This document shows, piece by piece, positions 1-20,041 of a stretch of 64,000 nucleotides of DNA. The DNA is from Candidatus Bathyarchaeota archaeon. GTDB taxonomy: Archaea; Thermoproteota; Bathyarchaeia; Bathyarchaeales; Bathycorpusculaceae. The notes beneath the pieces are model-generated. The model saw only the letters and a program-made list of their open reading frames with translations, made no database searches and was not told the DNA's origin. The DNA lies in NCBI GenBank assembly GCA_963715865.1, contig OY970280.1, positions 1-64,000 on the forward strand. Reading direction: 5' to 3'. The translations under genes were made by a program, and so were the position numbers. Every line of letters starts with the position of its first letter. Position 1 is the stretch's first letter.

Positions 1-1362
1 CAGCATCCATCTTTCATGCCCTTAGGCATCGGGTACTTAGGTGCGGTGTTGTACAAGAATCATTTTGAAGTTAACGTGATTGATTGCCAAGCACAAAAAC
101 TCACTCACAAACAGTTCAGAGAAGAAATTGGGAAAGTCCAACCTGACATAGTTGGAGTCACCTCTACCACTCTCACATACAAGTCCGCCCTCCGAATAGT
201 AAAAATATGCAAGGAAGTTTGGCCAAACTGCATAACTGCAATCGGAGGTCCCCATGTTACCTTCTGGGATGACAAGGCATTGCAAGAAGAGCCGTCCTTA
301 GATGTTGTTGTCAGGAGAGAGGGCGAAAACACAATGCTGGAGCTTGCACAAAGAGTCGAAAAACATCAAGCTTTCCATGACCTTGCAGGCACTACTTGCA
401 GGAAGGGTACAGAAATCATGAAGAACCCCGACAGACCTTACTTGGAAGACCTCGACAGCTTGCCTTTTCCAGCACTTCATCTTTGGCAGCATACGGAAAA
501 TCTGCGGAAGTACGGAACGATACCTTATCCTGTGATGACTAGTCGAGGCTGCGTGTACTGGTGCAACTTCTGCACAGCCGTCAGAATGTTCGGCAGAAGA
601 TACCGCATGCGTAGTCCAAAAAATGTAGTAGACGAGCTGGAGTTTCTCCACAGAAACTACTATGCGAACCAATTTACGTTCTACGATGATGCATTCACGG
701 TGGATCAAGCTAGAACCGCACAGATATGTGAGGAAATTCAGCGGAGAGGACTAAGAATCAAGTGGGATTGTGAAACCCGAGTGGACATGGTAACTAAAGA
801 ACTCCTTGTAAAAATGAGGGAGGCAGGTTGCATAGCTGTTTGGTTCGGCGTCGAGTCAGGCTCAAAGAAAGTTTTAAACAGCATGGGGAAAGGCTTCTCA
901 CTTGCTCAAACGAGAAGAGCATTCAAGTGGGCAAAAGAAGCAGGGTTGATGACGGTTGCAGGCGTAATCTTGGGTTTTCCTGGCGAAACAAAAGAGAGCG
1001 CTTGGGAAACAATTCGGTTTGTGAAGGAACTTAACCCTAATGATGTAGGATTCTACATAGCCACACCTTACCCTGGAACACCCCTGTACGACGAGGTGAA
1101 AGCGAACGGATGCCTAAGGATAACTGACTTTGACAAATACGATACGGCGACGCCAATCTTTGAGATTCCAAACTTAAGCATGCAGGAGTTGACAGAAATT
1201 CGGGAACAAGCATTCCAAAAGTTCTACCTCAGCCCAGCCTACTTCGTCAGCGCGTTAAGCATGTTTAAGAAAGGAAAAATGTGGGGTCTAGGCGCAACTC
1301 GTCTAATACTGGCACATTTCCGAAGGGCAATCAGAGCAAAAGCAAACAGCCTGATGAAGTAG
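1..1362 (+). CDS. B12-binding (class B) radical SAM protein, probably 5'-truncated by the window edge
   Basis: B12-binding motifs PLGIGYLGAVL, DIVGVTSTT, IGGPHVT; radical SAM SRGCVYWCNFC; FGVESGS. The frame is open to base 1 (QHPSF-MPLG), so the true start probably lies upstream. Confidence 0.9.
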   Translation, partial: QHPSFMPLGIGYLGAVLYKNHFEVNVIDCQAQKLTHKQFREEIGKVQPDIVGVTSTTLTYKSALRIVKICKEVWPNCITAIGGPHVTFWDDKALQEEPSLDVVVRREGENTMLELAQRVEKHQAFHDLAGTTCRKGTEIMKNPDRPYLEDLDSLPFPALHLWQHTENLRKYGTIPYPVMTSRGCVYWCNFCTAVRMFGRRYRMRSPKNVVDELEFLHRNYYANQFTFYDDAFTVDQARTAQICEEIQRRGLRIKWDCETRVDMVTKELLVKMREAGCIAVWFGVESGSKKVLNSMGKGFSLAQTRRAFKWAKEAGLMTVAGVILGFPGETKESAWETIRFVKELNPNDVGFYIATPYPGTPLYDEVKANGCLRITDFDKYDTATPIFEIPNLSMQELTEIREQAFQKFYLSPAYFVSALSMFKKGKMWGLGATRLILAHFRRAIRAKANSLMK

Positions 1363-1407
1363 AAAAGAGGGCAACACAAAACAATTGAACATGGAGAAAG
1401 CTGAACA

Positions 1408-2769
1408 TTGATTTTACTAATGACCACTGCCCCACCCTTGAAATCGCCTTGGGGTATGGCGGGGAAGCTTCCTCCCCTAGGGTTAGCTTATGTTGCTGCA
1501 GCTTTAGAAAAGAACGACTTCCATGTAGAAATTCTTGACAATTACTTGCTGGAAAGGCCAATTGAAGAAGTTAAATTGGAAGTGAGAAAGCGTGCCCCAG
1601 AAATAGTAGGCATAACCTGCAGTTCTTTGACTTATGCGCGGTGTGTCGAGACAGCTAAAGCAGTCAAAGAAGCATACCCATCCTGCAGAGTAGTAGTGGG
1701 AGGACCGCATCCCTCGTACATGCCCCAAACCATGCTGCAACACGAAGAGATAGATTACGTGGTTATTGGCGAGGGAGAGCAGACAATGGTGAAACTTGCC
1801 GCCAGCATCATGAAAGGCGAAGAAGACACGGTCGCCAAAATTCCAGGCGTAGCATGCAGGATTGGCGGCGAAGTAGTCAAGAACGCGCCTGAATTCATCA
1901 GCGATTTGGATCAAGTTCCCTTTCCAGCGCGTCATCTGCTGCCGATGCAAATGTACGACCGTGCGCTAAGCTATTTGAGTGTTAAACCAGTCGATACCAT
2001 GAGCATACTGCGTGGCTGCCCCTACAAGTGCGCGTACTGTGAAACTAGGGAATTGTGGGGAACCACTTGTCGAGCCTTCTCGCCCCAAAGAGTCATAGAC
2101 GAAATAAAGCATATGGTTGAAAACTACGGTTCAAAGGGAATCTACTTCGTCGGCGACAACTTCACCATAAACAAAAAACGTACCGCTGAGCTGTGCGGAC
2201 TAATCAGAAATAACAAAATTGACGTCGAATGGACATGCGAAACCAGAGCCGACCTTATCTCCAAAGAGTTGCTTGTTGAAATGAAATCTGCTGGCTGCCA
2301 AACCATATTCTTCGGAGTGGAATCCGGTTCGCCTCCAATCCTGCAAAAACTAGACAAAAACATCAATCTACAAGAAGTCGAGCATGCTTTCGAGCTTTGC
2401 AGGCAAGTGGGAATACGAACGGCCACTTCTTTCATGCTGGGAATCCCTGGTGAAACAGTTAGCGATATGAAAGCCACATTTAAGTTTGCAAAGCGCCTCC
2501 AAGCGGACTGGTGCCAATTCAACATTTACGTGGCATGCCCCAGCAGCAGACTGTACGATGAAGTGATAAGCCAAGGCTTGTATGATCAGATGGATAACTA
2601 TTTGGCTAGGGTAAAAACTAAAGACTTTGATTATGAGCTGCTGGTGAAAATTCAAAGGCAATTCCAGAGAAGCTGCCAAAGGTCGCCCTCTAGGCTAATT
2701 AGGGTAATTAAGCAGGAAGGCTTAGCGAGCGCATTCAAGAAAGGAGCCGCGATGATTTTCCATAGTTAG
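1408..2769 (+). CDS. B12-binding (class B) radical SAM protein, tandem paralog
   Basis: PPLGLAYVAAAL, VVGGPHPS, RGCPYKCAYC, WTCETRAD, FGVESGS; TTG start, alternative ATG at 1420. Confidence 0.9.
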   Translation: MILLMTTAPPLKSPWGMAGKLPPLGLAYVAAALEKNDFHVEILDNYLLERPIEEVKLEVRKRAPEIVGITCSSLTYARCVETAKAVKEAYPSCRVVVGGPHPSYMPQTMLQHEEIDYVVIGEGEQTMVKLAASIMKGEEDTVAKIPGVACRIGGEVVKNAPEFISDLDQVPFPARHLLPMQMYDRALSYLSVKPVDTMSILRGCPYKCAYCETRELWGTTCRAFSPQRVIDEIKHMVENYGSKGIYFVGDNFTINKKRTAELCGLIRNNKIDVEWTCETRADLISKELLVEMKSAGCQTIFFGVESGSPPILQKLDKNINLQEVEHAFELCRQVGIRTATSFMLGIPGETVSDMKATFKFAKRLQADWCQFNIYVACPSSRLYDEVISQGLYDQMDNYLARVKTKDFDYELLVKIQRQFQRSCQRSPSRLIRVIKQEGLASAFKKGAAMIFHS

Positions 2770-2818
2770 GTTATAGTTGCCGCCGCTTCTTCTTCATCAA
2801 TAGCTATTCTTTTTGAGG

Positions 2819-3130
2819 TTATACTGGTACATTGATTGTTTTAAGAATCTCAACGAAAGCTTTCATCGGCAGTTTGTTGTCGGTAACGTTTTTTATTAGC
2901 ATCCGACCGCCATCAAAAAGACTTATCTCCATTTTCATATAATCAAACATCAAGAGCATTGGAGATTTCACGCGAATTTTTGCATGCTGTTTCTTTATTT
3001 TTTCGCATGCTTGGTCCATGTTAAACTTCAAGGGTTGCGCTGGAGTTATGTCTGCGGTTGTTCCCCCACAGAGCCAAACAATGTTTAGGGTGAGATTACC
3101 GACAACTTGTTTTTCTGCCACTTCCCTCAT
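2819..3130 (-). CDS. Small protein resembling the stand-alone C-terminal domain of extended MoeB/ThiF proteins
   Basis: WLCGGTTADI...LLMFDY..EISLFDGGRMLIKNVTD resembles the LCGRNAVQI...LF.DGRALIKGT.D extension (by-eye similarity); start uncertain. Confidence 0.5.
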   Translation of the reverse strand: MREVAEKQVVGNLTLNIVWLCGGTTADITPAQPLKFNMDQACEKIKKQHAKIRVKSPMLLMFDYMKMEISLFDGGRMLIKNVTDNKLPMKAFVEILKTINVPV

Positions 3131-3234: not shown

Positions 3235-3987
3235 CTATCTTAGGATAGACTGCTGTGGGCTTTTGGGTACAAGAACAGCTTCTTCAATGTCCATGTAGAG
3301 GAAGTCTCCGGTGGGGTACGGTGAACCGCCGAAATCGACAACTTTGCTTCTCTTTGTGTATTTGGTAATTTCGATGCGTTGTTTGAATAGCGGCGCGTCA
3401 AGCGATGTTGAGTGGTATTCTCCAGGTTCTCCTGAGACGTCTATTCCCTTTCCCGCGGGACCGACTAGGGATTTCATGTCTTCAATGCATTTTCTGTCGA
3501 TCTGTCGCCCCAACCATTGTTCTGTGAAGTACCTTTGGTCTAGGCAACTGAGAATTGCTTTGACTCCGGTTGATTGCTCCATGTTCATGATTCGTTTGCG
3601 ATAGCGGCTGCCTGGAATTAGGTTGAGTGGTCGGTCCCAAAGGGGCATTATGAGCTTCATGTTTAGTTTTTTGCATGCATCTTTCCATACGCGTCTGTGA
3701 TGTACGTTGTCAATGTCGCCTGTTACGATGGCTTCAACGCCCTGTTCTTTATGTAGTCTTTCTAGGGTTCCCATGATGTCGTCATAGCGGTTATCTGTAA
3801 TTTTTACAAATTGGTGAGGAACGCCGAGAGATTTGGCTTGTAATTCTATGACTTTGAAACTATGAAAAACGTAGGGTTCCATGTAGATGTAGGTGACGAG
3901 ACATGCTATTTCGTGACCCTGCTCTATCACTTTGTGGTAAGCTGTACAGCAATCTTTTCCTCCACTCCAGTGGACAACCACTTTCAT
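3235..3987 (-). CDS. Dph6/DUF71 family PP-loop ATPase, paralog 1
   Basis: HWSGGKDC PP-loop, IVTGDI, PLW, GEPGEYHS. Confidence 0.88.
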   Translation of the reverse strand: MKVVVHWSGGKDCCTAYHKVIEQGHEIACLVTYIYMEPYVFHSFKVIELQAKSLGVPHQFVKITDNRYDDIMGTLERLHKEQGVEAIVTGDIDNVHHRRVWKDACKKLNMKLIMPLWDRPLNLIPGSRYRKRIMNMEQSTGVKAILSCLDQRYFTEQWLGRQIDRKCIEDMKSLVGPAGKGIDVSGEPGEYHSTSLDAPLFKQRIEITKYTKRSKVVDFGGSPYPTGDFLYMDIEEAVLVPKSPQQSILR

Positions 3988-4348: not shown

Positions 4349-4561
4349 TTGGTTAAAACTATCACTATTCGTGATGAAGTTTACCGTAAGCTTACGGCTA
4401 TAAAGCGGAAAGGTGAAAGCTTTAGTGAACTTTTTGACAGGCTTGCGGAATGCCAGGATTCACGTGAGACATTAACTAAGCTTAGAGCCACTGTCGAGTT
4501 TAAGAATAAAGAGAAGATGCTTTCTGAGTTATCGAATTTAAGGGCTGAACGTAGAAGTTGA
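4349..4561 (+). CDS. vapB: VapB-like antitoxin (UPF0330/DUF217 type)
   Basis: KTITIRDEVYRKL..IKRKGESFSELFDRL; likely TTG start at 4349; 4-bp overlap with the PIN gene. Confidence 0.8.
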   Translation: MVKTITIRDEVYRKLTAIKRKGESFSELFDRLAECQDSRETLTKLRATVEFKNKEKMLSELSNLRAERRS

Positions 4562-4938
4562 TTGCTCTAGATTCCGATGTCTTGATTGAAATATTAGATC
4601 GGAAATCCGAGAAGGGTGCAGAAGCGTTTAAACGCATTTTAGATAGTGGCGAGGACGTTTGTACGACGGTCATAAGCATACATGAGGTGTTGTTTGGGCT
4701 TCATAAATATGGTAAACCTGTAAAAGAATTATTGCAATTACCTGTTCTTAATTATACGAAGAACGACGCAATGCTCTCCAGCAAGCTTGAACTGGAAACT
4801 GAACAAACTGGTAAGCCTATACGGAGGACAGACACAATGGTTGCAGCTATAGCCATAAACAACAACGCTATTCTGTACACATTTGACCTAAAACACTTTG
4901 AACCTCTAAAACCTCATGGGCTTAAAATCTTTAAATAA
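4558..4938 (+). CDS. vapC: PIN-domain toxin VapC
   Basis: ALDSDVLIE, ISIHEV, TDTMVAAIAI, YTFDLKHF acidic PIN motifs. Confidence 0.88.
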   Translation: MIALDSDVLIEILDRKSEKGAEAFKRILDSGEDVCTTVISIHEVLFGLHKYGKPVKELLQLPVLNYTKNDAMLSSKLELETEQTGKPIRRTDTMVAAIAINNNAILYTFDLKHFEPLKPHGLKIFK

Positions 4939-4970: not shown

Positions 4971-6095
4971 TTAATTCCTAGTTATTTTGTTTAATGTTTG
5001 TTTTATTGTTTCTGTGAGTTTTTGGTTATCTTCAGCTGATCTTACTGTGACCCTGAAGTAGCTATCGTCCAAGCCCACGAAGGTACAGCAGTCACGGATT
5101 AGGATGCGCTCTTTAGCCAGCAGTTCTTTCAGCTTGGTGGAGGTGATTTTTCGGTTCAGGATTTTCACAAGCAGAAAATTCGTTACTGATGGGTAAACGT
5201 GTAAGCCTTCGATTTCGCTTAGGTTCTTGGCAAACTGCGCTCTTTCCTTGGCAATTGTCCTCTTGGTGTTTTCTATAAATTCTGTGTCGTTGAACGCTGC
5301 AAGTGTCGCTGCGCCTGCCAAACCGTTGATGCTCCATGGTTGCCTAACTGTTTCCAGCTTATCGATTAGGTTTCCTGCTGCTATGCCATAGCCTAAGCGG
5401 ATGCCAGGCATTCCGTAGAATTTTGTAACCGACCGAATCACGAAGAGGTTCTCGTACTCTTTCACCATCCCAGCTAGCGTTGTGTCTTGCCCTTTCTCTG
5501 CAAATTCGATGTAGTTCTCGTCTACGCTGAAGATGATGTCTTTTTTGTGGCAGAAATCAACAAGGTCCAAAACTGTTTCTTTACTGTACAATGTTCCCGA
5601 AGGACTATGCGGGTTGCAAACACACATAATTTTAGTGTCGCCAGTAACTGCCCTCTTAATTTTCTCCGTTTCCAAAGCAAAATTCTCAGGTAACTGAACA
5701 AACACTGTCTCGCCGCCAACCCTCAATGCTGCTTTCTCATACTCTGAGAACGAGGGGACGGGAATGAGTGACTTAAATCCACGGGGCAAAATCTCCGTAA
5801 TGGTATAAATAAGCTCAATCGAGCCGTTGCCTAAAATGACGTTTTCCTCTTCAACTCCGTGCCCTACGTATTTGGCGATTTCCGATTTAAACTCAACAGG
5901 GTTAGGGTCAGGATAAAACTGAATCAAATTAGCATACTGTTTTACAGCTTCAACCGCTTTAGGCGAAGGCCCAAGAAAATTGATAGGTCCACTGAACTCA
6001 AGCACTTCTTCAAGCGGAACATTATATTTCCTGCTAAAACCCCAGATGTCTCCGCCGTGGCTAACAAACCTGCGTTCCTTACACGTGTCCGACAG
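4971..6095 (-). CDS. cobD: L-threonine-O-3-phosphate decarboxylase (class I/II PLP aminotransferase fold)
   Basis: CNPHSPSG, VDENYIEF, RSVTKFYGMPGIRLGY, LIRDC. The conserved HGGDIW motif is in frame upstream of the ORF-track start at 6005, implying a CTG start at 6095. Confidence 0.8.
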   Translation of the reverse strand: MSDTCKERRFVSHGGDIWGFSRKYNVPLEEVLEFSGPINFLGPSPKAVEAVKQYANLIQFYPDPNPVEFKSEIAKYVGHGVEEENVILGNGSIELIYTITEILPRGFKSLIPVPSFSEYEKAALRVGGETVFVQLPENFALETEKIKRAVTGDTKIMCVCNPHSPSGTLYSKETVLDLVDFCHKKDIIFSVDENYIEFAEKGQDTTLAGMVKEYENLFVIRSVTKFYGMPGIRLGYGIAAGNLIDKLETVRQPWSINGLAGAATLAAFNDTEFIENTKRTIAKERAQFAKNLSEIEGLHVYPSVTNFLLVKILNRKITSTKLKELLAKERILIRDCCTFVGLDDSYFRVTVRSAEDNQKLTETIKQTLNKITRN

Positions 6096-6654
6096 CTTTC
6101 TCTTCCTCCATTAGCCTGCCTATTTCTTTTTCAACTTGCAACTGAGCCTTAAAGTGAGCGTTATACAAGTTAACGACCTTGTATAGCCAGTAAATCGTCC
6201 CAACGCCCAACGTAACTATCGTAATCAAAACATATGTTTTTATCGGTATCGTCTGCGGCATAAATATTCTTTGCGGAAAAGCAGCAGCGAGAAAAGCGTC
6301 CTGATTTCGTTCATGCACCGCTAAATCTCTCGATAACAAATACAAAATTACAAAAACAGGCACAATCAAAACAATGCTGACAGCCCACGCCTTCGCATTC
6401 CTCTCTGCAACGCCCTCGCTTGTTGCTGGCGACTTCTTCCCCTGACGCCCCAAATAAGTAGCAATCTGCTTCTCCAACTCTGCTTCACGCCGAAAATGCC
6501 TATTTCTGCCCTCAATCAAGCGGTAGTACATGGGGAAAAATGCCAACCCGAAAGTAACAATCGCCCCCAAAAACCACATGGAAAACCACATTTTCCTGTC
6601 AGCATCAACTTTACTGTACATAGCGTTTTCCATCTTAAGCATCAAACTATCCAT
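6079..6654 (-). CDS. Membrane protein with two DUF4234-like segments
   Basis: Two hydrophobic repeats IVTFGLAFFPMYYRL...RNRH and IVTLGVGTIYWLYKVVNLYNAH. Confidence 0.6.
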   Translation of the reverse strand: MDSLMLKMENAMYSKVDADRKMWFSMWFLGAIVTFGLAFFPMYYRLIEGRNRHFRREAELEKQIATYLGRQGKKSPATSEGVAERNAKAWAVSIVLIVPVFVILYLLSRDLAVHERNQDAFLAAAFPQRIFMPQTIPIKTYVLITIVTLGVGTIYWLYKVVNLYNAHFKAQLQVEKEIGRLMEEEKAVGHV

Positions 6655-6718
6655 TCAACTGCTTACAAGGTTGGAGTAGCCAAACTTTATAAGTTCTTCC
6701 TTTGAGCATCTTAATAAA

Positions 6719-7417
6719 ATGAGCCTCAAGACAATGCTGCTTTCCATTATAATTCCCGTCTACAACGAGGAATTAACCGTAGGCAACATAATCGACCGCG
6801 TAAAATTGGTCATGCAGCAAACTGGGCTAAAGAACGAAATAATAGTTGTAGACGACTGCTCGTATGACAAATCGCTTGAAGTAGCCAAAAAACGCAGCGC
6901 CAAAATCTACACCCTAAAACAACACTTAGGCAAAGGCTACGCGCTACGAGCGGGTTTTTCCAAAGCAAAAGGCGATATAATAGTCACCATAGACTCAGAC
7001 GGTTCGCATAAACCTGAAGAACTCCTAGAAGTATTGGCGCCGGTTCTCGAAGACAAAGCCGACTTAGTCATAGGCTCAAGATACCTGAACCACAAGAGCG
7101 TGGCTGCAAGAAAACTAAACGCTTTCGGCGTCAAACTCTTCAACTATTTTATCCAACTTTTAACAGGCGTAGCCATCACTGACTCCCAATCAGGCTACCG
7201 CGCCATGAAACGTCAAGTTCTAAAAAACCAAAACCTAAAGTCAGGCGAATACGAAATAGAATCCGAAATGCTTGTTAAAACCGCCAAAAAAAACTTCAGA
7301 ATCACCGAGGTGCCGATAAGTTTTGAGCAGCGAACTTACGGCAGATCCGGAGTTGACCCCATTGTTGACGGGTTCAAAATTCTCCTATCAATAATTTTGG
7401 CTTATATGAAGGGTTAG
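6719..7417 (+). CDS. GT2 glycosyltransferase (polyprenol-phosphate glycosyltransferase/DPM1-like)
   Basis: SIIIPVYNE, VVDDCSYD, GKGYA, IDSDGSH, DSQSGYRA, FEQRTYGRS. Confidence 0.9.
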   Translation: MSLKTMLLSIIIPVYNEELTVGNIIDRVKLVMQQTGLKNEIIVVDDCSYDKSLEVAKKRSAKIYTLKQHLGKGYALRAGFSKAKGDIIVTIDSDGSHKPEELLEVLAPVLEDKADLVIGSRYLNHKSVAARKLNAFGVKLFNYFIQLLTGVAITDSQSGYRAMKRQVLKNQNLKSGEYEIESEMLVKTAKKNFRITEVPISFEQRTYGRSGVDPIVDGFKILLSIILAYMKG

Positions 7418-7422
7418 GCAAG

Positions 7423-8427
7423 TTGGCTGGCAACGCATATCCTAAAGTTTCAATCATAGTTGCAGCCTATAACAGCGAACAAACAATCGAAGAATGCCTC
7501 AAATCAATCCTAGCGATAGATTACCCCGCAGGTTTCATTGAAGTTATCGTCATGGATGGCGTCTCGAAAGATGGCACGGTCAAAAAAGCCCAGCAATACC
7601 CTGTCAAAGTTTTTTCCATTCGCTTGAACGCTCCAGCAGCCTACAATTACGCCATGAAAATCTCTGCGCATCAGGTTCTGGGCTTTATAGATGCAGACGC
7701 CAAAGTAGAACCGCAATGGCTAAGCAAGCTCGTACCCCACTTGGAAGAACCCAAAGTAGCAGGCGCCAGCGGAAGCATTGAAACTTGGAACGCCCAAAAT
7801 CCGTGGGCTAAAAGCATCGGTTACGAACTTAAAAACCGTTACAGGCGCATAGGAAAATACACCAGCCGCATAGCCACCATGAACCTGCTGCTGAAAAAAG
7901 CTGTTATTGAAGAGGCTGGCGGATGGGACGAAAAGCTGCCCAGCCAATACGACACGGACTTAGGTTTCAGAATAAGCGCTAAAGGCTACAAAATCGCTTA
8001 TGAGCCGAACGCGGTCTGCTACCACTACAACAGGCCAACCGTGCGAGCGTACTATAGGCAGCAGTTGCAGTACGGCAAGAATACCCTAAAACTTTACTTC
8101 AAACATGGACGCTTGGCGAAGGGCGATGAAATCACCGATTTTGGCATGAACATCCAGCCTGCGCTAATCTTGGCTATCATCGTGTTTTTCCTTCTTGGAA
8201 TCATAGAAGTGCTCAGGCCCCTATGGTATGTATCAGGCTTAATTTTAGTCTTGATGTTTGTTTACTTCGTTTACTCCGCCGCCAAGGTCGCGGTTAAATT
8301 CCATGATAGGGTTGCTTTACGGTTGGTGGTGCTTTATTTTGTGAGAGCATTTGCATGGTTTGTCGGCGCAGTAATAACCACAGTCAACTATGCGAGGGGC
8401 AAAGGGAGGAAGGCGCCAAATGCGTAA
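7423..8427 (+). CDS. GT2 glycosyltransferase with C-terminal TM helices
   Basis: SIIVAAYNSE, MDGVSKD, FIDADA, GGWDE, YDTDLGFR. Confidence 0.88.
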   Translation: MAGNAYPKVSIIVAAYNSEQTIEECLKSILAIDYPAGFIEVIVMDGVSKDGTVKKAQQYPVKVFSIRLNAPAAYNYAMKISAHQVLGFIDADAKVEPQWLSKLVPHLEEPKVAGASGSIETWNAQNPWAKSIGYELKNRYRRIGKYTSRIATMNLLLKKAVIEEAGGWDEKLPSQYDTDLGFRISAKGYKIAYEPNAVCYHYNRPTVRAYYRQQLQYGKNTLKLYFKHGRLAKGDEITDFGMNIQPALILAIIVFFLLGIIEVLRPLWYVSGLILVLMFVYFVYSAAKVAVKFHDRVALRLVVLYFVRAFAWFVGAVITTVNYARGKGRKAPNA

Positions 8428-9613: not shown

Positions 9614-10581
9614 GCAGTTTCTATCGGCTCTCCTCTATAAGCGATGGTAATTTTCTGGAAAAGCTTCACTACATCCAAAGAGCAAAACAGCATCTTCGTT
9701 AAAAATTCGTGCTGGTAGATTTTCATTTGCGCTTTCACTGGCAAATCCATTCTCGGCGTCTCAAATTTACGCATTACCTCATTCACCTGCAAACCCTGCA
9801 CCACGATTGCTTTCTCTTGCAAGCCTGTTTTTTTCGCAATATAATTCAGATATGTTTGTTTCCAGTCTAAGCTCATGATTTTTGTTGCGGTTATGTCGAT
9901 GGCTAACGCGTCGTTGCTGGTTAGTATTAAGTTCATTTTGACGGGTTTGCCTTTTGTTGGGCCATTTCCTTCAATTCCAACTCGTGCGTCCATGACAGTT
10001 AGTTTCGGCTTGAAGATGGAGTATAACCTGTAGAAAACCTCTGGCAGATACGGGTGCAGGTAAATGCGCTTGTTGCTTGGGACGCAGCCGAAGAGGTTTT
10101 TTATGGCTCCACTGTACATTGCAAACTCATGCGTTTTCATCAAAGGCAAATCCACAATCGCGTCCGCATCTAACACGGTTTTTGGCAAAAACAACTCCTT
10201 TAGCGGGCTGCTGTTGGTTGGGAATTTTACTTTGACCACTTTGTCCTCTGAAAGATTAATCACGCTGCCGCCTGCTTTCTTTACGGCTGTTTCTATCCCT
10301 GTTTTCTCGAACGCCGAGTCGCATGGATAATTGAACCCGTTAGATTCGCCAACTATTACCTCGCTGGCGCCATCTCGAAGCAGACCAACCAGTTCACTTA
10401 ACAGTTGGGGGCTTGTTACTACGCCGGGAAGGTACTCTGGGTGGCTCATGTTGGGCTTAACAAAAATTTTCTGTTTTCCACGCAACCCCGAATCCTCAAC
10501 AGCCTCCTTTAAGATTCCGCTTATGCCGTTTTGGGCTCGAAAGATTTTAACCGTTTTCTGCTCTTGGTTAAGCACACTCAA
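9610..10581 (-). CDS. DUF362 domain protein
   Basis: FVKPN, VTSPQL, VGES, LPLMKTH, GAIKNLFGC, MDARVGIEGNGP. Confidence 0.8.
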   Translation of the reverse strand: MSVLNQEQKTVKIFRAQNGISGILKEAVEDSGLRGKQKIFVKPNMSHPEYLPGVVTSPQLLSELVGLLRDGASEVIVGESNGFNYPCDSAFEKTGIETAVKKAGGSVINLSEDKVVKVKFPTNSSPLKELFLPKTVLDADAIVDLPLMKTHEFAMYSGAIKNLFGCVPSNKRIYLHPYLPEVFYRLYSIFKPKLTVMDARVGIEGNGPTKGKPVKMNLILTSNDALAIDITATKIMSLDWKQTYLNYIAKKTGLQEKAIVVQGLQVNEVMRKFETPRMDLPVKAQMKIYQHEFLTKMLFCSLDVVKLFQKITIAYRGEPIETA

Positions 10582-12112: not shown

Positions 12113-12736
12113 CTAGTTCTTCTTTGTTTTTCCCATTATTTTCTCTGCTATCTCTAAATCCTTAAGCGTGTTAATGTTAAGGAGAACCTCAGTTTCTTCC
12201 GTGATTATGGCGCTTGTTTCAATTTTGCCCTCGCCCTGAATTTTGGCGCCGTTTACTATGTTGACTCCTGAAACAGCATACCACTCGCCTTTGTACTCGT
12301 CAGTGGAAGAAACTGAAAGTCCCAAGATCTCGCGCTTTTGGATGGGCACAAAAACCGCCAAGAAATCTTTCCCGCAAACCTCAAACTCTCCGATGACTTT
12401 GTCAAGAAACTTGCCTGTGATAGCTGGCAAATCTGCTGGAATCGTTAACACAGGACCCATCAAGCCAGCCATAAGAACAGCTTGCCTAAGGTCGTTATGG
12501 TAACCTTTTGCATCTGTCCGAAGAACCTTCCATCCCTTGCTTTTGCAGTGCTTTTCTGTTTCAGGTGTGTTCCCGCTGGTGACCACATAAAACTCCGAAA
12601 CCTTCACGGCGCTAGCAACAGCCTCAGCAACCCAGTCAACCAAAGGCTTACCCAAAAAGGGCAAAAGTGGCTTCTCCACTGGCAATCCCATGCGTTTGCC
12701 TTTTCCGCCAGCCATAATCAATGCAGGAACTTTCAT
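12113..12736 (-). CDS. cobY: Adenosylcobinamide-phosphate guanylyltransferase, copy 1
   Basis: LIMAGGKGKRM, EKPL, GYHNDL, PADLP, SGVNI, NINT..DL; coupled to cobS. Confidence 0.8.
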   Translation of the reverse strand: MKVPALIMAGGKGKRMGLPVEKPLLPFLGKPLVDWVAEAVASAVKVSEFYVVTSGNTPETEKHCKSKGWKVLRTDAKGYHNDLRQAVLMAGLMGPVLTIPADLPAITGKFLDKVIGEFEVCGKDFLAVFVPIQKREILGLSVSSTDEYKGEWYAVSGVNIVNGAKIQGEGKIETSAIITEETEVLLNINTLKDLEIAEKIMGKTKKN

Positions 12737-13578
12737 ATTAGCATCAACACGCCTGCAAGCAAAATAAGCGTAACTGCCCTCGCTACCTCGTTGGTTGCTC
12801 CAATCATGTCGCCTGAAACTCCGCCGAAAACGCTTTCCGCAACTTTCTCCATCACAACCGCCACTGGAATGCTAACTAAAACCACTCCGACGCCTACGAA
12901 ACCTAGAAAAGGGTTACCTGTAAGACCGAAAAATGGGTAAACGATCAAAACAGAAAGCACATAAGCGATAAGGTTCAGTTTCTTTTTGGCTTTCTGAAGA
13001 AAAATCGAGCCTAACCCTTTATGCGTAGGTTTCCCAATCCAAACAATCGTAACCATCGCTAATTTGGCTGAGACTTCAGCGGCGATTATTGCTCCGAACG
13101 CGAAAACTGGGTTCACAAGAGAGGGGTAAAGAAGGAATAAGCCTGCAAAAGCCATAAACTCAACAATTATCGCTATTAACGCTCCTGGGTAAGTTACGGT
13201 CCAAGCGTGAGCAACCATTTTTCGGTCATGCACATTTCTCAATCCAACAGCGTTGCCTAAATCGATTAAGCCATCGAAATGCTGAAGCCCAGTTAAAACA
13301 AGCAGAAAAGCCACAGTCACAGCGGCAACCGCAAGCTTCAACAAGAAATCAGTCGGCAACGCAGTAACCTGATTAATTAAACTAAGCAAAAATTGAATGA
13401 TATATCTTGAACCCAAAAAGTAAACTGCGCCAAGTAAGCCTATGAATCCGCCGATAAGCGGAAACAAATATATGTGCTCGGCTGTGGTGAAGATGAAATC
13501 TTCTTTTCCGCCGACGGGAATGATGGTTAGGAAAGACAGCAAATCCCTAAAAGTTTTTATAGTTTTCACAGGCGACAT
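12733..13578 (-). CDS. cobS: Cobamide synthase (adenosylcobinamide-GDP ribazoletransferase), copy 1, divergent
   Basis: LLSFLTIIP, LFPLIGGFIG, LTGLQHFDGLIDLGN, FGGVSGDMIGATNE. Confidence 0.85.
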   Translation of the reverse strand: MSPVKTIKTFRDLLSFLTIIPVGGKEDFIFTTAEHIYLFPLIGGFIGLLGAVYFLGSRYIIQFLLSLINQVTALPTDFLLKLAVAAVTVAFLLVLTGLQHFDGLIDLGNAVGLRNVHDRKMVAHAWTVTYPGALIAIIVEFMAFAGLFLLYPSLVNPVFAFGAIIAAEVSAKLAMVTIVWIGKPTHKGLGSIFLQKAKKKLNLIAYVLSVLIVYPFFGLTGNPFLGFVGVGVVLVSIPVAVVMEKVAESVFGGVSGDMIGATNEVARAVTLILLAGVLMLI

Positions 13579-13617: not shown

Positions 13618-13626
13618 GTGAACTTC

Positions 13627-14562
13627 ATGGGTGAACTTAAAGGGAAAAAAATACTAGTCACTGGCGGCGCAGGCTTTATAGGCTATCACTTGTGCAAAAA
13701 ACTATCAAGCTTAGCGTCTAACTTAACTATTTACGATAACTTGTCAAGCGGCAAAATGGAAAACGTGAAAGACGTTCCCAACGCAAAGTTTGTGAAAGGC
13801 GATATCCTTGACCTGAAAAAGCTGGGTTCTTTAGATAAGGCTGACTTGATCTATCATTTAGCCGCTCAAGTCGTTGTGCCCTATTCCATGGAGAATCCTC
13901 TGATAGATTTTGAAACAAACGCTAAAGGAACCGTGCAAGTTCTTGAGAAAGCGCGCAAAGATGATGCAAAACTAGTTTTCGCATCCAGCGCTGCTGTCTA
14001 TGGGAATCCAACAGTTTTTCCAACTCCTGAAGAGTACGGTTTTCACCCCTTCTCATGCTACGGCTTATCCAAAGTGGTTGGCGAAGAATACTGCAGCATG
14101 TACCAGAGCCAATACGGCTTAGATATCACCGTTTTAAGGTTCGCTAATGTTTACGGGTTAAGATGTCACGGCGTCATTCATGACTTTCTGGATAAACTTG
14201 CTAAGAACCCAGGCAAACTAGAAATAATCGGTACAGGCTTGCAGTCGCGGGACTTTGTTCATGTTTCGGATGTAGTGGATGCTCTGGTAACCGTTGGCTC
14301 AGAGGATTCTGCTAACGGTAAAACTTACAACATAGGCTATGGAACAACCACCACGATAATAGACCTTGCCAAAATGATGCTTAAAATCCTCAACCTAGAA
14401 AAAAAGACGTTTATTACTACAACGGGTGTCTCTTGGCAGGGTGACGTTACAAAAATCTGGTTTGACAACTCCAAAGCCAAGAAAGAGTTAAACTGGAACC
14501 CCAAAGTAAGCCTTGAAGACAGCATAAAAGAAGTCATCGCTGACAGGAAACTTTCTAAATGA
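13627..14562 (+). CDS. NAD-dependent epimerase/dehydratase (GalE-like extended SDR)
   Basis: VTGGAGFIG, HLAAQ, ASSAAVYG, YGLSK, RFANVYG, RDFVHVSD; GTG at 13618 is an alternative start. Confidence 0.9.
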   Translation: MGELKGKKILVTGGAGFIGYHLCKKLSSLASNLTIYDNLSSGKMENVKDVPNAKFVKGDILDLKKLGSLDKADLIYHLAAQVVVPYSMENPLIDFETNAKGTVQVLEKARKDDAKLVFASSAAVYGNPTVFPTPEEYGFHPFSCYGLSKVVGEEYCSMYQSQYGLDITVLRFANVYGLRCHGVIHDFLDKLAKNPGKLEIIGTGLQSRDFVHVSDVVDALVTVGSEDSANGKTYNIGYGTTTTIIDLAKMMLKILNLEKKTFITTTGVSWQGDVTKIWFDNSKAKKELNWNPKVSLEDSIKEVIADRKLSK

Positions 14563-15443
14563 CCACTCCAACGCCAGCTAGAGGATTAATCGCTCTCTTG
14601 CGACTTCCCTACTGGCTGATGACTGGTGGTTTATCTCTTTTAACAGCTTTTGCCATCACCAAAAACCCTCTTAGCCTCAGCGTACAAACTATTTTGCTGA
14701 TTTTCTTTTCAATGGCGTTCATAACATCCGCAGGCTTCGCAATCAACGACTACTTCGACAGGGAAAGCGATGCTGTAATCAAGCCAAAACGCCCCATACC
14801 CTCAGGCGCATTAACGCTCAAGCAGGTGGTGGCAATTTCAGGTTTACTTTTCGCTTTAGGTCTGGTTATGGCTTTTTTCATTAACTGGCTAAGCTTCATA
14901 ATTATCGCTGCTGATTCCCTACTGCTTCTGATTTACTCAACTCTTGTAAAGCGGAAATCAGGCTTTGTCGCAAACGTTTTGGTGGGCATTTTAACAGGCA
15001 CAGCCTTCATGTACGGAGAAGCCACCATCTCAGGCACTGTAAGCTTGATTTCCCTAAGCCTCTACCCAATAGCTTTCGGCACAATAGGCGGCAACGTCCT
15101 CCGAGACATCCTAAGCCTTGACGGTGACGCAAAAATTGGTTACCCAACACTCCCGCAGAAAATCGGCATCACCAACTCAGCGAAAACAGCTGCAGTGTTC
15201 TTCACGTTGACTGGGTTGCTTGCGCCTCTACCCTACTTTTTGGGCAACTTTGGAGTTTACTATTTGCCACTCATACTGTTTTGGAGTGTTATTCTAATTT
15301 ACTCTTCAATACGCCTAGTAACTTCGGCTTCAACTGTGTCGAACGTGCGAAAATACGAGCGCATAGTTACAATGTCGATGATTCTGCTTCCTTTAGCGTT
15401 GATAATTGAGGCGTTATCCCCAATGATAGGAGGGTTACTGTGA
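14559..15443 (+). CDS. UbiA-family prenyltransferase, DGGGP synthase-like
   Basis: GFAINDYFDRESD, KRPIPSG, multiple TM helices; second acidic motif reads RDILSLDGD. Confidence 0.85.
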   Translation: MTTPTPARGLIALLRLPYWLMTGGLSLLTAFAITKNPLSLSVQTILLIFFSMAFITSAGFAINDYFDRESDAVIKPKRPIPSGALTLKQVVAISGLLFALGLVMAFFINWLSFIIIAADSLLLLIYSTLVKRKSGFVANVLVGILTGTAFMYGEATISGTVSLISLSLYPIAFGTIGGNVLRDILSLDGDAKIGYPTLPQKIGITNSAKTAAVFFTLTGLLAPLPYFLGNFGVYYLPLILFWSVILIYSSIRLVTSASTVSNVRKYERIVTMSMILLPLALIIEALSPMIGGLL

Positions 15444-16906
15444 GCAAAACAAAAAGCATCTGTCCCGAATGCCAGAAAAAAATAGACGCCCAATTAACCA
15501 AAGTCAACGGCAAAATCAAAATCACAAAACAATGCCCCGAACACGGAGTTTTCGAAGCTACCCACTGGCAAAGCCCAAGCATCTTCAATCACATGCAAAC
15601 CTATGACCAATTTCAATACCTTGGCGACTTAAACGCTCCAAAAAACCCTGAAGGCTGCCCCTATGTCTGCGAATCCTGCAATAACCATGCCTCAGGCACT
15701 GTTATCGGCGTTATAGACGTAACAAAGAAATGCAACTTGAAGTGTGCGGTGTGCTTTTCCACTTTTCCTCAGCAAGAAGTTGATTATGAACCAACCAAAG
15801 AGCACCTCGTGAAAATGTTGGAGTTCGTAAGCAAAGCTAATCCGAAGCCTCCAGCCATCTTGTTCTCCGGTGGCGAACCCTTAGAACGTGAGGATATGCC
15901 TGAAATCATCGGTGTCGCTCACAAGTTGCGGTTTATGACTATTCTTGCGACGAATGGCGTGCGCTTGGCTGAGAACCCGGAGTTAGCGGAGAGACTAAAG
16001 AAGAACGGTTTGAACATTGTTTATTTACAGTTTGACAGTTTTCACGATGATTTTTACAAGAAAGTTAGAGGACAGAAGCTTTTTGACTATAAGCTGAAGG
16101 CTATTGATGTCTGCCGCAAATACGACATAGAAGTAATCTTGGTTAATACGCTGATGCGTAGCTTAAACGACAAAGAAGTTGGCGACATAATCAGGTTTGC
16201 GGCGAAAAACACTGACATAATCAGGGGATTAATTTTCCAGCCAATCGCATTTACTGGCAGAGCTACGGAAAACCCGTTTAGAGAAAACTTCCGCGAATGG
16301 TCTTTTGCAGAGGACGTAGAAAACCAAACGCAAGGAGAAATAAAAACCACTGATTTGTTTCCCATGTCCGTTATGACTTCGCCGATAAAGATTATGCGCA
16401 AATTCATGAAAAAGCCGTGGCCGCTGTTTTCTTGTAGTCCGCAGTGCGGAATTGTGAATTGGATTTATGTTTCAAAAAAGGGCAAGATGTTTCCAATTAA
16501 CCGTTTTGTTAACTTTGACAGGTTCTTTAGAAGCATTCGCAAAACTGCCGAAACTGCTGAGTCTAAGGGCAAAATTTCGCTTCTGTCATCACTTTTTATA
16601 GCGTCGATGCTGTCGATGGACTGGTTCTTGGTTACTAAAGAGGTCGGCATGTTAACATTAACAAACGCAATTATGAGGATGCATCTTTCGCCTTCTTACC
16701 AGTCGCTTGGCAAGATACGCAGAAGAATCTTTTTGTTAGGTTGCATGGCGTTCATGGATTCATACAACTTTGACGTTAACCGAGTTAGACGATGCGTAGT
16801 CCACTACATCACACCGGACCTGAAGATCATACCATTCTGTGCATACAACAATATACATAGGGTTGCAATCGAAAAAGAGTACGCTCAAAGACAAAAGAAA
16901 GCTTAA
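15440..16906 (+). CDS. tes: Tetraether lipid synthase (MJ0619/Tes)-family radical SAM protein
   Basis: N-terminal CPEC...CPEHG, GCPYVCESCNNH, CNLKCAVC, YLQFD, FQPIAFTGR, QCG, GCMAFMDSYNFDVNRVRRCVVHY, IIPFCAYN: the full Tes architecture. Confidence 0.8.
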   Translation: MSKTKSICPECQKKIDAQLTKVNGKIKITKQCPEHGVFEATHWQSPSIFNHMQTYDQFQYLGDLNAPKNPEGCPYVCESCNNHASGTVIGVIDVTKKCNLKCAVCFSTFPQQEVDYEPTKEHLVKMLEFVSKANPKPPAILFSGGEPLEREDMPEIIGVAHKLRFMTILATNGVRLAENPELAERLKKNGLNIVYLQFDSFHDDFYKKVRGQKLFDYKLKAIDVCRKYDIEVILVNTLMRSLNDKEVGDIIRFAAKNTDIIRGLIFQPIAFTGRATENPFRENFREWSFAEDVENQTQGEIKTTDLFPMSVMTSPIKIMRKFMKKPWPLFSCSPQCGIVNWIYVSKKGKMFPINRFVNFDRFFRSIRKTAETAESKGKISLLSSLFIASMLSMDWFLVTKEVGMLTLTNAIMRMHLSPSYQSLGKIRRRIFLLGCMAFMDSYNFDVNRVRRCVVHYITPDLKIIPFCAYNNIHRVAIEKEYAQRQKKA

Positions 16907-17430
16907 CTTACGACTTGAATGTTTAAGACACAATAATTGTTCGTAAATTCGTAGGCTTTTGAAACTTGATTGTACTGCCAGAGTTCGAAAACCACCGAGT
17001 AGCTTCCAACTTGGTTTTGTGTGACTGTTGACAAGTTTTGCCAGCTTCCACCATTTGCCAAGCTTATATCATATGTTTGGGTTGGCTGTGTGTCAACGGG
17101 GAAAGTGGAAAGGTTTGGGGTGATTTTCATTAAGACTTGGTAACTTTGATTTCCGGTTCCTCCCATGTGGTTTTCAACGTTTACCCACACGTTAAATGTG
17201 CTGTTCTGGTTAGCAACCAGGGTCACTGGGTAATCGGCGGCTGTCTTTTGTGAATCGAGCAAGTAAATTGTGCTGTACCCTTCTGGCTGCGGCTTAGCCA
17301 CTACATAGTACCCTACAACTAATGCGGAAACAATTATTAATGCAAGAAAAATGGCGACCGCGTAGCCTTTCTCATCGTTTAAGCCGATTTTCCTTCCAAT
17401 GTTTTTGACACGTTCTAATTGTATCCGCAT
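16903..17430 (-). CDS. DUF1616-like membrane-anchored protein
   Basis: N-terminal TM helix, PEGYSTIYLL, ADYP..L, VNVENHMG, VFELW; start uncertain. Confidence 0.6.
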   Translation of the reverse strand: MRIQLERVKNIGRKIGLNDEKGYAVAIFLALIIVSALVVGYYVVAKPQPEGYSTIYLLDSQKTAADYPVTLVANQNSTFNVWVNVENHMGGTGNQSYQVLMKITPNLSTFPVDTQPTQTYDISLANGGSWQNLSTVTQNQVGSYSVVFELWQYNQVSKAYEFTNNYCVLNIQVVS

Positions 17431-18109
17431 CCAGAAGTCCTCTAAATATTGTGCTAAATATCTCGATTCCTGACTTAAATTTTTTCAGTTTAGTTTTCCC
17501 GTATTTTCGGGCTTTGTACGTGGTGGGAATCTCCACCATGTTGTATCCTTCTTTGGCGAATTCCACAAGCATTTCAGTAGCGAAAGCCATGTCTCCCTCG
17601 TTTAACTCAACACTGTCAATGGCTTCGTGAGATATTGCTCGAAAACCCGATTGTGAGTCACTGAGGAATTGGCTGTATAAGAAGTCGTAAAAGAAGGTTA
17701 TCACTTTGTTTCCAACGAAATTCATGAGTCCCATGGCTTTGTTTGGGTCATACATGCGTGTTGCTAAAACCATGTCAGCATCTTTTTCAATCATCCTATT
17801 CAGCAAGCGGTTGATGTGTCTTACTTCGTAAGTTCCATCGCCGTCAACCATCACAATAATGTTGCCTTTCGCGTTTTTCATGCCTACCTTAAGAGCAATG
17901 CCATATCCGCGTCTCGGTTCAATAATGAGCTTACAAAAACTTGTGTCTTTAACGATTTCTATCGTTCCATCAGTGGAGTTGCCGTCTACAACGATTATTT
18001 CTTTTGGGTATGCCAAATCTTTCTCGATGTTTGTAACAGCTTCTAAGATGTTCCCTGCTTCATTGAGTGTTGGAATTACTACCGAGACCAGCTCTACTTT
18101 TGACGTCAT
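17372..18109 (-). CDS. GT2 glycosyltransferase (DPM1-like)
   Basis: SVVIPTLNE, VVDGNSTD, GYGIAL, VDGDGTY, SDSQSGFRA, YKARKYG. Confidence 0.9.
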   Translation of the reverse strand: MTSKVELVSVVIPTLNEAGNILEAVTNIEKDLAYPKEIIVVDGNSTDGTIEIVKDTSFCKLIIEPRRGYGIALKVGMKNAKGNIIVMVDGDGTYEVRHINRLLNRMIEKDADMVLATRMYDPNKAMGLMNFVGNKVITFFYDFLYSQFLSDSQSGFRAISHEAIDSVELNEGDMAFATEMLVEFAKEGYNMVEIPTTYKARKYGKTKLKKFKSGIEIFSTIFRGLLDADTIRTCQKHWKENRLKR

Positions 18110-18155
18110 TTGCCTACTCCCATTTTGCAAAGGCTATAATGTTTCGGTAGCTTGG

Positions 18156-19314
18156 TTAAATAAGCTCTTCGTATATCCCGATGAGTGTTTCAACATTTTT
18201 ATCCCAACTATACTTTTCTTCCATTACTGCTCGAATCTCTAATTTGCGTGAAGACAAATCAATATTAGAAAATTCCAAAACTGCTTTTGCAAGCAGCTCA
18301 GGCTGGTTAGGCGGCACTAGTTTTCCATAATCTTCCATTAAGATTTCACTTATTCCCCCAACATCTGTGGCTATTACTGGCAATCCGCAAGCCATGGCTT
18401 CGAGCGCAACCAAAGGTAAGCCTTCTCCAGATTTTGATGGTAGTGCAAAGAAGTCTGCGGCGTTATAGTAAAACGGTAAGTCTTCATCTTTAACGAAGCC
18501 TGTGAACCTAAAATTGTTTTCTATCCCTAACTGGTTAATTTTCATTTGAACGTTGTTGAGGTCTGGTCCTTTTCCAACAACTAGAAAAATAATCTTAGGG
18601 TTCTTCTTGACCGCGATGTTTGCGCTTTCTATCAATGTGTCGATGCCGTTTTTGTAAACAAGCCTCCTAACAGTTAGAACCACGATTGAGTTTTGGGAAA
18701 TTCCAAGCTTTCTTCTCATTTCTTCGCGTTTTCCAGCTAAAGGTCTAAAACGGACCAAGTCAACGCCGTTATGTAACACTTTAACCTTCTCTGGTTTGGC
18801 TCCTAAACTTAAAACATAATTCTTAGTTGCATTGCTTACAGTGATTATTTTGTCTGCTTCTTTCAGCGTCTCCTTTCCAACGGCAAGGTCGTTTAACCGT
18901 TCAATGTTATCAAAAATGCTGTCGTACTCAATGAACGTGTTATGCTGCGTAAGCACAAATGGCTTAGAGTACCACTTCGCAAGCTTAGCCGCAATAAGCG
19001 ACGTAAGGTATGGGTGACCGTGCGCATGGACTATTTTGCTTGATTTTACCGCTTTAAGAAAAATTTCAAGACTTGTTACTGTCGGAATCGAGTAGGGAAT
19101 TCCAAGGCGGAACCCAGTGTTTAACGATTCATAACACTCAACGTTTATGCCGTCAACAACATAATTTTTTGGTGTTTGAATTCGGTTTGTTACAACGAAT
19201 GGGCTCATAGTTTCTCTGGAGTAGCCGCTTGCTTTGTTCATAAACAACCCTTTCTATTCCACCAACATGAGGTAGAAAGGTGTGTGTAACAATGCACAGC
19301 CTTGTTTGAACCAT
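18156..19314 (-). pseudogene. GT4 glycosyltransferase split by a +1 frameshift near 19200
   Basis: N-terminus MVQTRLCIVTHTFLPHVGGIE... is one frame off from FVVTNRIQ...HNGVD...RRLVYKNG...EAMACGLPV; extra base in gagCCCattc. May be an assembly error. Confidence 0.75.
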
Positions 19315-19557
19315 GGGAGCCCAACTGAGTAAACTCCTCAATCAACATAGTATTATAACCTTATGGTAAACCTCGCAACCGCTGATGCGCTTAAAAAATA
19401 CGTGCGTTATTCAGGGTGATACCTCTTTTGCTAGTTGAAAACCCGAGCAAAAAGTATACCCCTATAGGTGTAGTTTCTATAGCAAAATTGACCTACACTG
19501 TCTATGGCAACTAGCTTGAAAACTCGATGCGCTGAAGAATCGATAAGAAAGGGTTTT

Positions 19558-20041
19558 TTATGGTTTTGCTTGTGCGTTTTTAGTAGCGCGTGTATAAACG
19601 TTTGATGATACGCCTGCAACTAAACCGCCTATAGCATCATTTATGATTGAGCCAAGCTTCTTTAGAATCCCGGGTTTAGCTTGGTCAAATCGTACGAATT
19701 CAAAAACTGCTCTGGTTCCGCCGATGTAGCTTGCAATTGCTATTCCTAAAATTTCGTCAGCGACTGGTCCTGGTCTACCTATGAATCTTTCCTTGCGTCA
19801 ATCCAGGAATAAGTCCCTTCTCTGCATCTTCTTGCGCTCGGAAAGCAGCTACTTCAAGGATGGAAACATTAACATCTGCTAGGACATCGAGGAATTCTTC
19901 TCTAAGCATTTCAACGGCTTTTTCCTCTGTTTCCACGCCTGGATGAGGCACAAACATTTCAAGTGCACAGTGAATGAGGCTTTTTAGGGAAATGTCTTTT
20001 TGTTCAAGAAACTCAAGTAAGGCTGGCATTTCATTGCTCAT
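19558..20041 (-). pseudogene. cobZ: Alpha-ribazole phosphatase (archaeal PgpA-like CobZ) split by a +1 frameshift at about 19795
   Basis: FVPHPGVET...DVNV...IPGLT(+1)KERFIGRPGPVADEILGIAIASYIGGTRAVFEFVRFDQAKPGIL...DAIGGLVAGVSSN; length 484 = 3n+1. Confidence 0.8.

Follow-up and report, generated by a model that had tools for sequence, protein, structure and literature searches.

The enzymes that join and modify the chains of archaeal tetraether lipids are recent discoveries: tetraether synthase (Tes), the synthase (Gms) of glycerol monoalkyl glycerol tetraethers (GMGTs) and the lipid-modifying B12-binding radical S-adenosylmethionine (SAM) enzymes were identified only in 2022–2025. Tes is described from Methanocaldococcus jannaschii (GDGT-MAS, structure 7TOL), Sulfolobus and Methanosarcina, and digeranylgeranylglyceryl phosphate (DGGGP) synthase is represented by the structure MjDGGGPS (6M31). 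Gms is told from AhbD by an N-terminal extension of about 100 amino acids, AhbD homologs with this extension have been shown to be GMGT synthases, and Thermococcus guaymasensis has a gms-gmm-grs gene cluster (Garcia et al., PMC11214058); for Bathyarchaeota, numerous homologs of Gms were reported, along with "Gmm2" homologs in multiple copies (PMC11214058). Here we describe a locus of a Candidatus Bathyarchaeota archaeon in which divergent relatives of Tes, DGGGP synthase and Gms are encoded among genes of archaeal cobamide nucleotide-loop assembly (CobD, CobY, CobS, CobZ, CobT). The DNA analyzed, hereafter the window, comprises the initial 64 kb of the single 2.35-Mb contig OY970280.1. Genes were called from an open reading frame (ORF) listing together with Pfam and NCBIfam scans of the window, and the DNA upstream of position 1 was taken to be the end of the contig, assuming a circular chromosome.

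The block at 4971–19247 of the window (Table 1) is likely a lineage-specific lipid module. That it is, more exactly, a lineage-restricted accessory module whose components are divergent paralogs of core enzymes of ether-lipid synthesis is a reading of the predicted proteins that we give about an even chance. The module is interleaved with nucleotide-loop genes, namely cobD and cobY, both predicted to be working, an additional cobS and a frameshifted cobZ.

Divergent ether-lipid paralogs in one block

The genome encodes a canonical Tes at position 2,085,524 that scores 672 bits against NF045702, whereas Tes2, the copy in the window, lies barely above the cut-off of this model. Tes2 can be aligned over its full length with the GDGT-MAS structure 7TOL (E 2e-112) and shares with the described Tes proteins the N-terminal Zn-ribbon, the CX3CX2C auxiliary motif, the radical SAM motif and the C-terminal Cys residues. 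However, it is a paralog of about 40% identity (39–40% to the canonical Tes of this genome, 38–43% to those of the order) that is confined to two lineages, and it is a divergent second copy in a clade of its own rather than an ortholog of the experimentally characterized Tes. When 12 Tes2 sequences were aligned with 10 canonical ones of the order, all Cys residues common to GDGT-MAS proved invariant (Cys 8, 11, 32, 73, 77, 80, 98, 102, 105, 336, 452, and 467), and 19 differences were fixed between the two groups (e.g., H437A in the CMHFMD block). Because the shared Cys residues are all kept and the differences between the groups are fixed, Tes2 looks like an enzyme of changed specificity, predicted to be active, and not like a decayed copy. 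The loss of an auxiliary-cluster Cys from Tes2 (RCVVHY versus RCCIHY) was also considered as a distinguishing feature and rejected, since the second Cys is variable among the order's canonical Tes proteins too.

UbiA2, the prenyltransferase coupled to Tes2, is likewise a second copy, with one other UbiA protein encoded in the genome (at 739,563). It is closest to DGGGP synthase, MjDGGGPS (6M31) being its best structural-sequence match (E 5e-34), and its first Asp-rich motif, NDxxDxxxD, is intact. It differs from the known synthases in falling below every DGGGPS equivalog cut-off (for example, 173 versus 269 bits for PRK12884; PRK12882 in Table 1) and in its second motif, RDILSLDGD, where a Ser replaces the middle Asp of DGGGPS (KDFEDMEGD) in the manner of the chlorophyll synthase ChlG (NDFKSVEGD).

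The third protein, g12, joins an AhbD-like radical SAM/SPASM core (residues 118–467) to a 117-amino acid N-terminal extension with four Cys residues (CGAC...CEKC), which is the architecture published for Gms (PMC11214058), and is the only such protein in this genome. Other subfamilies of Gms architecture, 36–49% identical to g12, are widespread in the order, while g12 orthologs of at least 55% identity occur solely in Tes2-bearing genomes; in a homolog search, only orthologs of at least 79% identity were among the matches listed. As in T. guaymasensis, an extended AhbD-like radical SAM/SPASM gene is found near B12-binding radical SAM genes. By contrast with that cluster, g12 shares an operon with the cobS and cobY genes, a DUF362 gene is its partner, the B12-binding radical SAM genes are at least about 8 kb away, and no grs gene was identified here.

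The genes for an NDP-sugar epimerase/dehydratase of the short-chain dehydrogenase/reductase type (SDR), UbiA2 and Tes2 are translationally coupled, each overlapping the next by 4 bp. The operon cobS1-cobY1-g12-DUF362, with 4-bp overlaps between cobS1 and cobY1 and between g12 and DUF362, runs divergently from them, and the starts of cobS1 and SDR are 39 bp apart on opposite strands.

In the proposed pathway, UbiA2 would add an isoprenoid chain to a glycerol-type backbone, and Tes2 would join the chain ends to give a membrane-spanning tetraether. The Gms-type g12, possibly with DUF362 as its partner, may bridge the two chains, and the SDR and five glycosyltransferases of families GT2 and GT4 would supply and attach sugars. 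Given these proposed roles of UbiA2, Tes2, g12, the SDR and the glycosyltransferases, the expected product would be a specialized glyco-tetraether, made beside the ordinary glycerol dialkyl glycerol tetraether (GDGT) of the canonical Tes and DGGGPS.

Conservation and distribution of the block

Synteny was compared across 40-kb regions of ten relatives and across 80 public loci with 10-kb flanks. In the relatives the block consists of cobD, the gene for a 191-amino acid protein, GT2a, GT2b, GT4a, (DUF362), g12, cobY, cobS, SDR, UbiA2, Tes2, and (DUF1616, GT2c, GT4b). The sub-block from cobD to g12 is inverted in some of them yet stays adjacent; cobD is kept in the cluster in nine of the ten, and in nine, Bathyarchaeum tardum among them, the gene for the 191-amino acid protein lies beside it. 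All 80 public loci have Tes2, 79 have UbiA2, 77 SDR, and 75 cobS1, and the counts of the remaining genes drop with distance and at contig ends.

The most distant comparison is with B. tardum M17C (G040; CP122380; GTDB g__BIN-L-1, f__BA1, o__B26-1; Bathy-8), which belongs to a different family from that of the window. Its 13 orthologs lie in one cluster at 28–57% identity (mostly 40–57%), inversions notwithstanding, and the right edge of this cluster is GT4b, followed by gatB; the DUF362 gene, present in the family of the window, was not found in the B. tardum cluster. The block from cobD to GT4 keeps its synteny throughout the genus of the window. Since the core genes (cobY-cobS and, divergently, SDR-UbiA-Tes) are adjacent in 75–79 of the 80 loci and the whole block from cobD to GT4 recurs in another family, the grouping is not due to chance. 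The first-pass annotation had staked its proposal in advance on conserved synteny in relatives, and this is what the ten relatives, the 80 loci and B. tardum display.

Among 151 genomes from 62 genera of the order, Tes2-type proteins are found in 45, namely in 12 of the 13 genomes of the genus of the window, in six other genera of its family, and in 18 of 21 Bathyarchaeum genomes. The block from cobD to GT4 was not found in the 54 other genera, where the only Tes is the canonical one, about 40% identical to Tes2. About 44 of the 151 genomes have both Tes2 and CobS1, and the two are missing from the genera without the block. The public loci with Tes2 at 71–99% identity belong to Candidatus Bathyarchaeota/Bathyarchaeia, and several to Ca. 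Bathycorpusculum (Bathy-6), from peat, soil, and termite gut. The organism of the window is itself a Bathy-6 bathyarchaeon, Ca. Bathycorpusculum. Among 1.84 billion representatives at 50% identity, a single cluster (the Bathyarchaeum type, 48%) falls between Tes2 and the canonical Tes (at most 38%), and the Tes2 clade is confined to two such clusters. A reduced genome of the order (G163; 1.3 Mb, 92% completeness) keeps cobZ-cobT-cobS2-GT4b-GT2c-DUF1616-Tes2-UbiA2 and cobS1-cobY-g12-DUF362-GT4a.

Two side observations concern these loci. In B. tardum, a 476-amino acid pyridine-nucleotide-disulphide oxidoreductase is encoded between cobS1 and Tes2 (479,688–481,118), and the same pairing with cobS1/Tes2 is seen on the metagenome contigs L143 and L144 and not at this position in the window. 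Contigs carrying the cluster at 80–89% identity (L058, L115, and L119) are filed under the bacterial or methanogen names Ca. Acidoferrum, Methanocella sp., and Limnocylindrales, and are probably mis-binned in public metagenome-assembled genomes.

Cobamide and class B radical SAM genes around the block

The nucleotide-loop genes are of the same families as those of the archaeal pathway, and CbiZ and CbiB give them a salvage context; what sets them apart is an extra divergent CobS beside the Tes2 module and the frameshifted cobZ-like gene. A second set in the window, cobT-cobS2-cobY2, outscores the cluster copies on their models (Table 1 for CobS; for CobY, 147.4 bits for CobY2 and 124.9 for CobY1, both below the cut-off). 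CobS1 is 33–37% identical to CobS2. Its type occurs in the same genomes as Tes2 and always 2–5 kb away, fragmented assemblies being the only exceptions; these genomes carry CobS2 as well, in six more CobS2 is the only CobS, and in the greater part of the order there is none. A repurposed cobY1 was also considered and ruled out, since five genomes have no other cobY than the one next to cobS1: B. tardum, three other Bathy-8 genomes (G126, G066, and G092), and G163, each of which has one cobT and two cobS. The CobD-like gene is the only close copy in this genome (the next homolog is 37% identical), and the cluster cobD is the sole copy in Bathy-8. Because the two genes are sole copies or lack close second copies, the cluster cobY and cobD are predicted to be working cobamide genes.

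The proposal that the locus supplies its own cofactor was therefore too narrow: the cob genes lie in a general salvage island with CbiZ, CbiB, and an MtrH/corrinoid pair, and the cluster cobY is the only one that Bathy-8 has. All the gene types listed by the first-pass annotation are present at 1–20056 in the Pfam and NCBIfam scans, with the reservation that cobZ is there only as a gene with a one-nucleotide frameshift. The 93-amino acid ORF called cobZ is the N-terminal half of the gene, which has an extra base near 19793, and in a tblastn search the intact 168-amino acid ortholog of G163, encoded next to cobT, matches it in two frames. The frameshift could be a long-read assembly error or mark a real pseudogene.

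The two class B proteins at the start of the window, B1 and B2, carry B12-binding and radical SAM domains, as do the lipid-modifying class B enzymes Gmm, Cgm, Pgm, Ted, and GrsA/B. They belong to a set of about 12 such paralogs in the genome, nine of them at 2,309,000–2,353,500 and the window start; this array of about nine sits in a cobamide-salvage island of about 70 kb, with the lipid module at its edge. The stretch of about 50 kb at genome 2,304,000–2,354,843, which adjoins position 1 if the chromosome is circular, holds seven further paralogs. In addition, it encodes CbiZ, CbiB, an MtrH-like methyltransferase with a small corrinoid protein, an amidohydrolase, a SAM methyltransferase, small SPASM radical SAM proteins, a HemN-like radical SAM protein, AsnC regulators, an RnfD-like/ferredoxin fusion, and several PQQ/Big-domain proteins of 750–1000 amino acids. 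It is orthologous to B. tardum 422–470 kb, and the whole island stretch to B. tardum 422–486 kb, where there are three B1-type genes and one B2-type gene. Paralogs of B1 in the upstream array are 57–63% identical to it, and its three co-orthologs in B. tardum 58–63%; B2 has a recent duplicate of 89% identity at 2,352,128–2,353,441 and an ortholog of 57% identity in B. tardum.

The best NCBIfam matches of B1 and B2 are BchE, HpnJ, and ApyD, all far below cut-off (245 versus 481 bits for B1 with BchE). None of the paralogs reaches the cut-off of TIGR04190 or of TIGR04013, which is uninformative as a proxy for lipid function, as TIGR04190 matches stay below cut-off in Sulfolobus too. Genera with Tes2 have 5–11 B12-binding radical SAM paralogs, G163 excepted, and other genera mostly 0–3. 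B1 and B2 lie outside the conserved core, as peripheral members of the array. G163 keeps the lipid module without any B12-binding radical SAM gene, and therefore the module does not need class B radical SAM enzymes; B1 and B2 are its neighbors and candidate partners. The earlier view of the class B genes as members of the lipid unit is weakened by their place outside the core, the lack of a match to a lipid-specific family, and the absence of such genes from G163. The wider claim that the locus builds tetraether (glyco)lipids is partly supported, having gained from the synteny, the Gms architecture and a block common to the genus reported to produce butanetriol dialkyl glycerol tetraethers (BDGTs), although the class B genes drop out of its core.

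Table 1. Genes at the left end of the window and the second nucleotide-loop set (window coordinates; scores in bits, where given against the model cut-off).
Feature	Position	Strand	Basis or remark
B1, class B (B12-binding) radical SAM protein, 448 aa	16..1362	+	PF02310 + PF04055
B2, class B radical SAM protein, 453 aa	1408..2769	+	PF02310 + PF04055
103-aa protein without Pfam family	2819..3130	-	Among the ten relatives only in G009
Dph6-like PP-loop ATP pyrophosphatase	3235..3987	-	PF01902 131.8
VapC/PIN toxin	4558..4938	+	PF01850
CobD-like threonine-phosphate decarboxylase	4971..6005	-	TIGR01140 269.5 vs 290.6
Conserved 191-aa protein	6079..6654	-	Weak membrane-protein DUF matches (DUF4234, DUF6693)
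GT2a, glycosyltransferase, AglJ / polyprenyl-phosphate hexose synthase-like	6719..7417	+	Pfam/NCBIfam, syntenic
GT2b, glycosyltransferase	7423..8427	+	Pfam/NCBIfam, syntenic
GT4a, glycosyltransferase	8390..9613	+	Pfam/NCBIfam, syntenic
DUF362 protein	9610..10581	-	PF04015 168.6; 4-bp overlap with g12
g12, Gms-architecture radical SAM/SPASM protein	10578..12002	-	TIGR04545 (AhbD) 308.7 vs 500
CobY1, adenosylcobinamide-phosphate guanylyltransferase-like	12113..12736	-	TIGR00454 124.9 vs 174.7
CobS1, divergent CobS paralog	12733..13578	-	TIGR00317 108.7 vs 110
SDR, NAD-dependent NDP-sugar epimerase/dehydratase	13618..14562	+	PF01370, PF16363; GalE 175 vs 262
UbiA2, DGGGP-synthase-like prenyltransferase paralog	14559..15443	+	PRK12882 171 vs 296
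Tes2, divergent tetraether-synthase paralog	15440..16906	+	NF045702 465.6 vs 450
DUF1616 protein	16903..17430	-	PF07760, syntenic
GT2c, glycosyltransferase, AglJ-like	17372..18130	-	Pfam/NCBIfam; 60 of 80 public loci
GT4b, glycosyltransferase	18156..19247	-	Pfam/NCBIfam; right block edge in B. tardum
CobZ-like (PgpA-family) gene, frameshifted	19573..20056	-	TIGR03161 39.8 vs 152.5
CobT, CobS2, CobY2 (second nucleotide-loop set)	27366..29840	+	CobT 414, above cut-off; CobS2 167.5 vs 110

Two further features lie around the block. The Dph6-like gene of Table 1 has paralogs at 26679–27350 of the window (36% identity) and at genome 2,351,155–2,351,856 (47%), and each of the three adjoins a B12-binding radical SAM gene or cobT, which hints at a recurring B12-related pairing. 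The VapC gene between the Dph6-like gene and cobD is found in none of the regions of the ten relatives, and because it is missing from this position there, it is read as a recent insertion outside the conserved block.

Alternative explanations and the link to butanetriol tetraethers

Several points weigh against an accessory lipid module. The synteny rests on two or three independent lineages, and the island may have been inherited or exchanged as a unit. With only two 50%-identity clusters in the Tes2 clade, Tes2 has no counterpart in other lineages among the 1.84 billion representatives, and Methanomassiliicoccus, a BDGT producer, is therefore without it. The cluster in G163 lacks SDR, there is no B12-binding radical SAM gene anywhere in that genome, and only one small corrinoid protein is encoded there. 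Further, the glycosyltransferases are of generic families whose products could be surface glycans, tetrapyrrole enzymes also occur in the AhbD-like and UbiA families, and cobamide genes dominate the surroundings.

The strongest of the alternatives, which we regard as somewhat unlikely, is that the island is a set of separate units without a common pathway, co-inherited, with the synteny arising from common descent or from one transfer event that involved Bathy-6 and Bathy-8. Among these units would be cobamide salvage with loop assembly, an O-demethylase-type MtrH/corrinoid pair, class B radical SAM enzymes of various functions, glycosyltransferases for surface glycosylation, and spare lipid paralogs. 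This would fit the orthology of the whole 64–70 kb to B. tardum, which takes in CbiZ, CbiB, MtrH, the PQQ/Big surface proteins and the methyltransferase, and the role of the cluster cobY as sole cobY in Bathy-8 and G163; it also agrees with the description of both Bathy-6 and Bathyarchaeum as corrinoid-dependent lignin-methoxy degraders (2025 review). However, the cob, lipid and glycosyltransferase genes stay contiguous despite local inversions, the reduced G163 genome keeps exactly the block, and cobS1-cobY-g12-DUF362 reads as one operon both here and in G163.

A more specific proposal is that the island encodes the pathway of BDGTs and pentanetriol dialkyl glycerol tetraethers (PDGTs). A class B radical SAM orthogroup, for example B1 (58–69% identity between the lineages), would methylate the glycerol backbone, and UbiA2, Tes2 and the Gms-type enzyme would handle the altered backbone. 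A 2025 review, with reference to Dong et al. 2025, describes BDGTs as a biomarker specific to the lineage Baizosediminiarchaeum, the genus in which it places strain M17C, the type of B. tardum. BDGTs were not found where other Bathyarchaeia dominate. The methyl group of BDGTs comes from methionine in M. luminyensis, where a SAM enzyme is suspected, and a 2025 preprint by Garcia assigns Cgm, Pgm, Ted, and Hgs and no backbone methylase. The correlation between BDGTs and the island is nevertheless confounded, because the two lineages share the corrinoid-dependent methoxy-aromatic lifestyle. We consider this pathway decidedly unlikely. In the reading as an accessory lipid module, the class B enzymes are candidates for a methylation such as BDGT formation and are not required for the core.

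Alternatively, the block might perform corrinoid or tetrapyrrole chemistry, in which the AhbD/NirJ-like radical SAM protein, the UbiA enzyme and the extra CobS would tailor a cobamide or attach it to a lipid anchor. The best family matches of g12 are indeed AhbD, NirJ, and AhbC, all tetrapyrrole side-chain enzymes, the second motif of UbiA2 has the ChlG-type Ser, and the block is embedded among cob genes. It is a very improbable account all the same, since UbiA2 scores far higher on DGGGPS than on ChlG (in the PDB search 121 and 51 bits, respectively; in NCBIfam 171 and 88), Tes2 is a full-length Tes, and the AhbD homologs with such an extension are GMGT synthases (PMC11214058). Equally improbable is a recruitment of CobS1, with cobY and the cobZ-like gene, to lipid head-group chemistry, in which a hydroxyl would receive a GDP-activated phospho-alcohol as in nucleotide-loop assembly: CobS1 is an extra paralog that strictly co-occurs with Tes2 at 2–5 kb and scores below CobS2 on the CobS model, and CobS2 alone suffices in six genomes without the block, but Bathy-8 has no cobY or cobD besides the adjacent ones, which must therefore function in cobamide synthesis, and CobT-CobS2-CobZ abut the block in G163.

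The enzyme of the butanetriol and pentanetriol backbones is unassigned in the literature surveyed, which leaves out Dong et al. 2025, and a second Tes paired with a DGGGPS-like protein, restricted to the genus reported to make BDGTs and to its relatives from soil and peat, offers a short list of genes for heterologous expression. For organisms limited to corrinoid salvage, a duplicated CobS that always lies next to the lipid module is a puzzling trait of cobamide biology. If the island does encode BDGT formation, Bathy-6 of soil and peat would make butanetriol-type tetraethers as well, and not only the marine Bathy-8, and the locus would bear on the use of BDGTs and GMGTs as biomarkers of Bathyarchaeia in sediments and peat.

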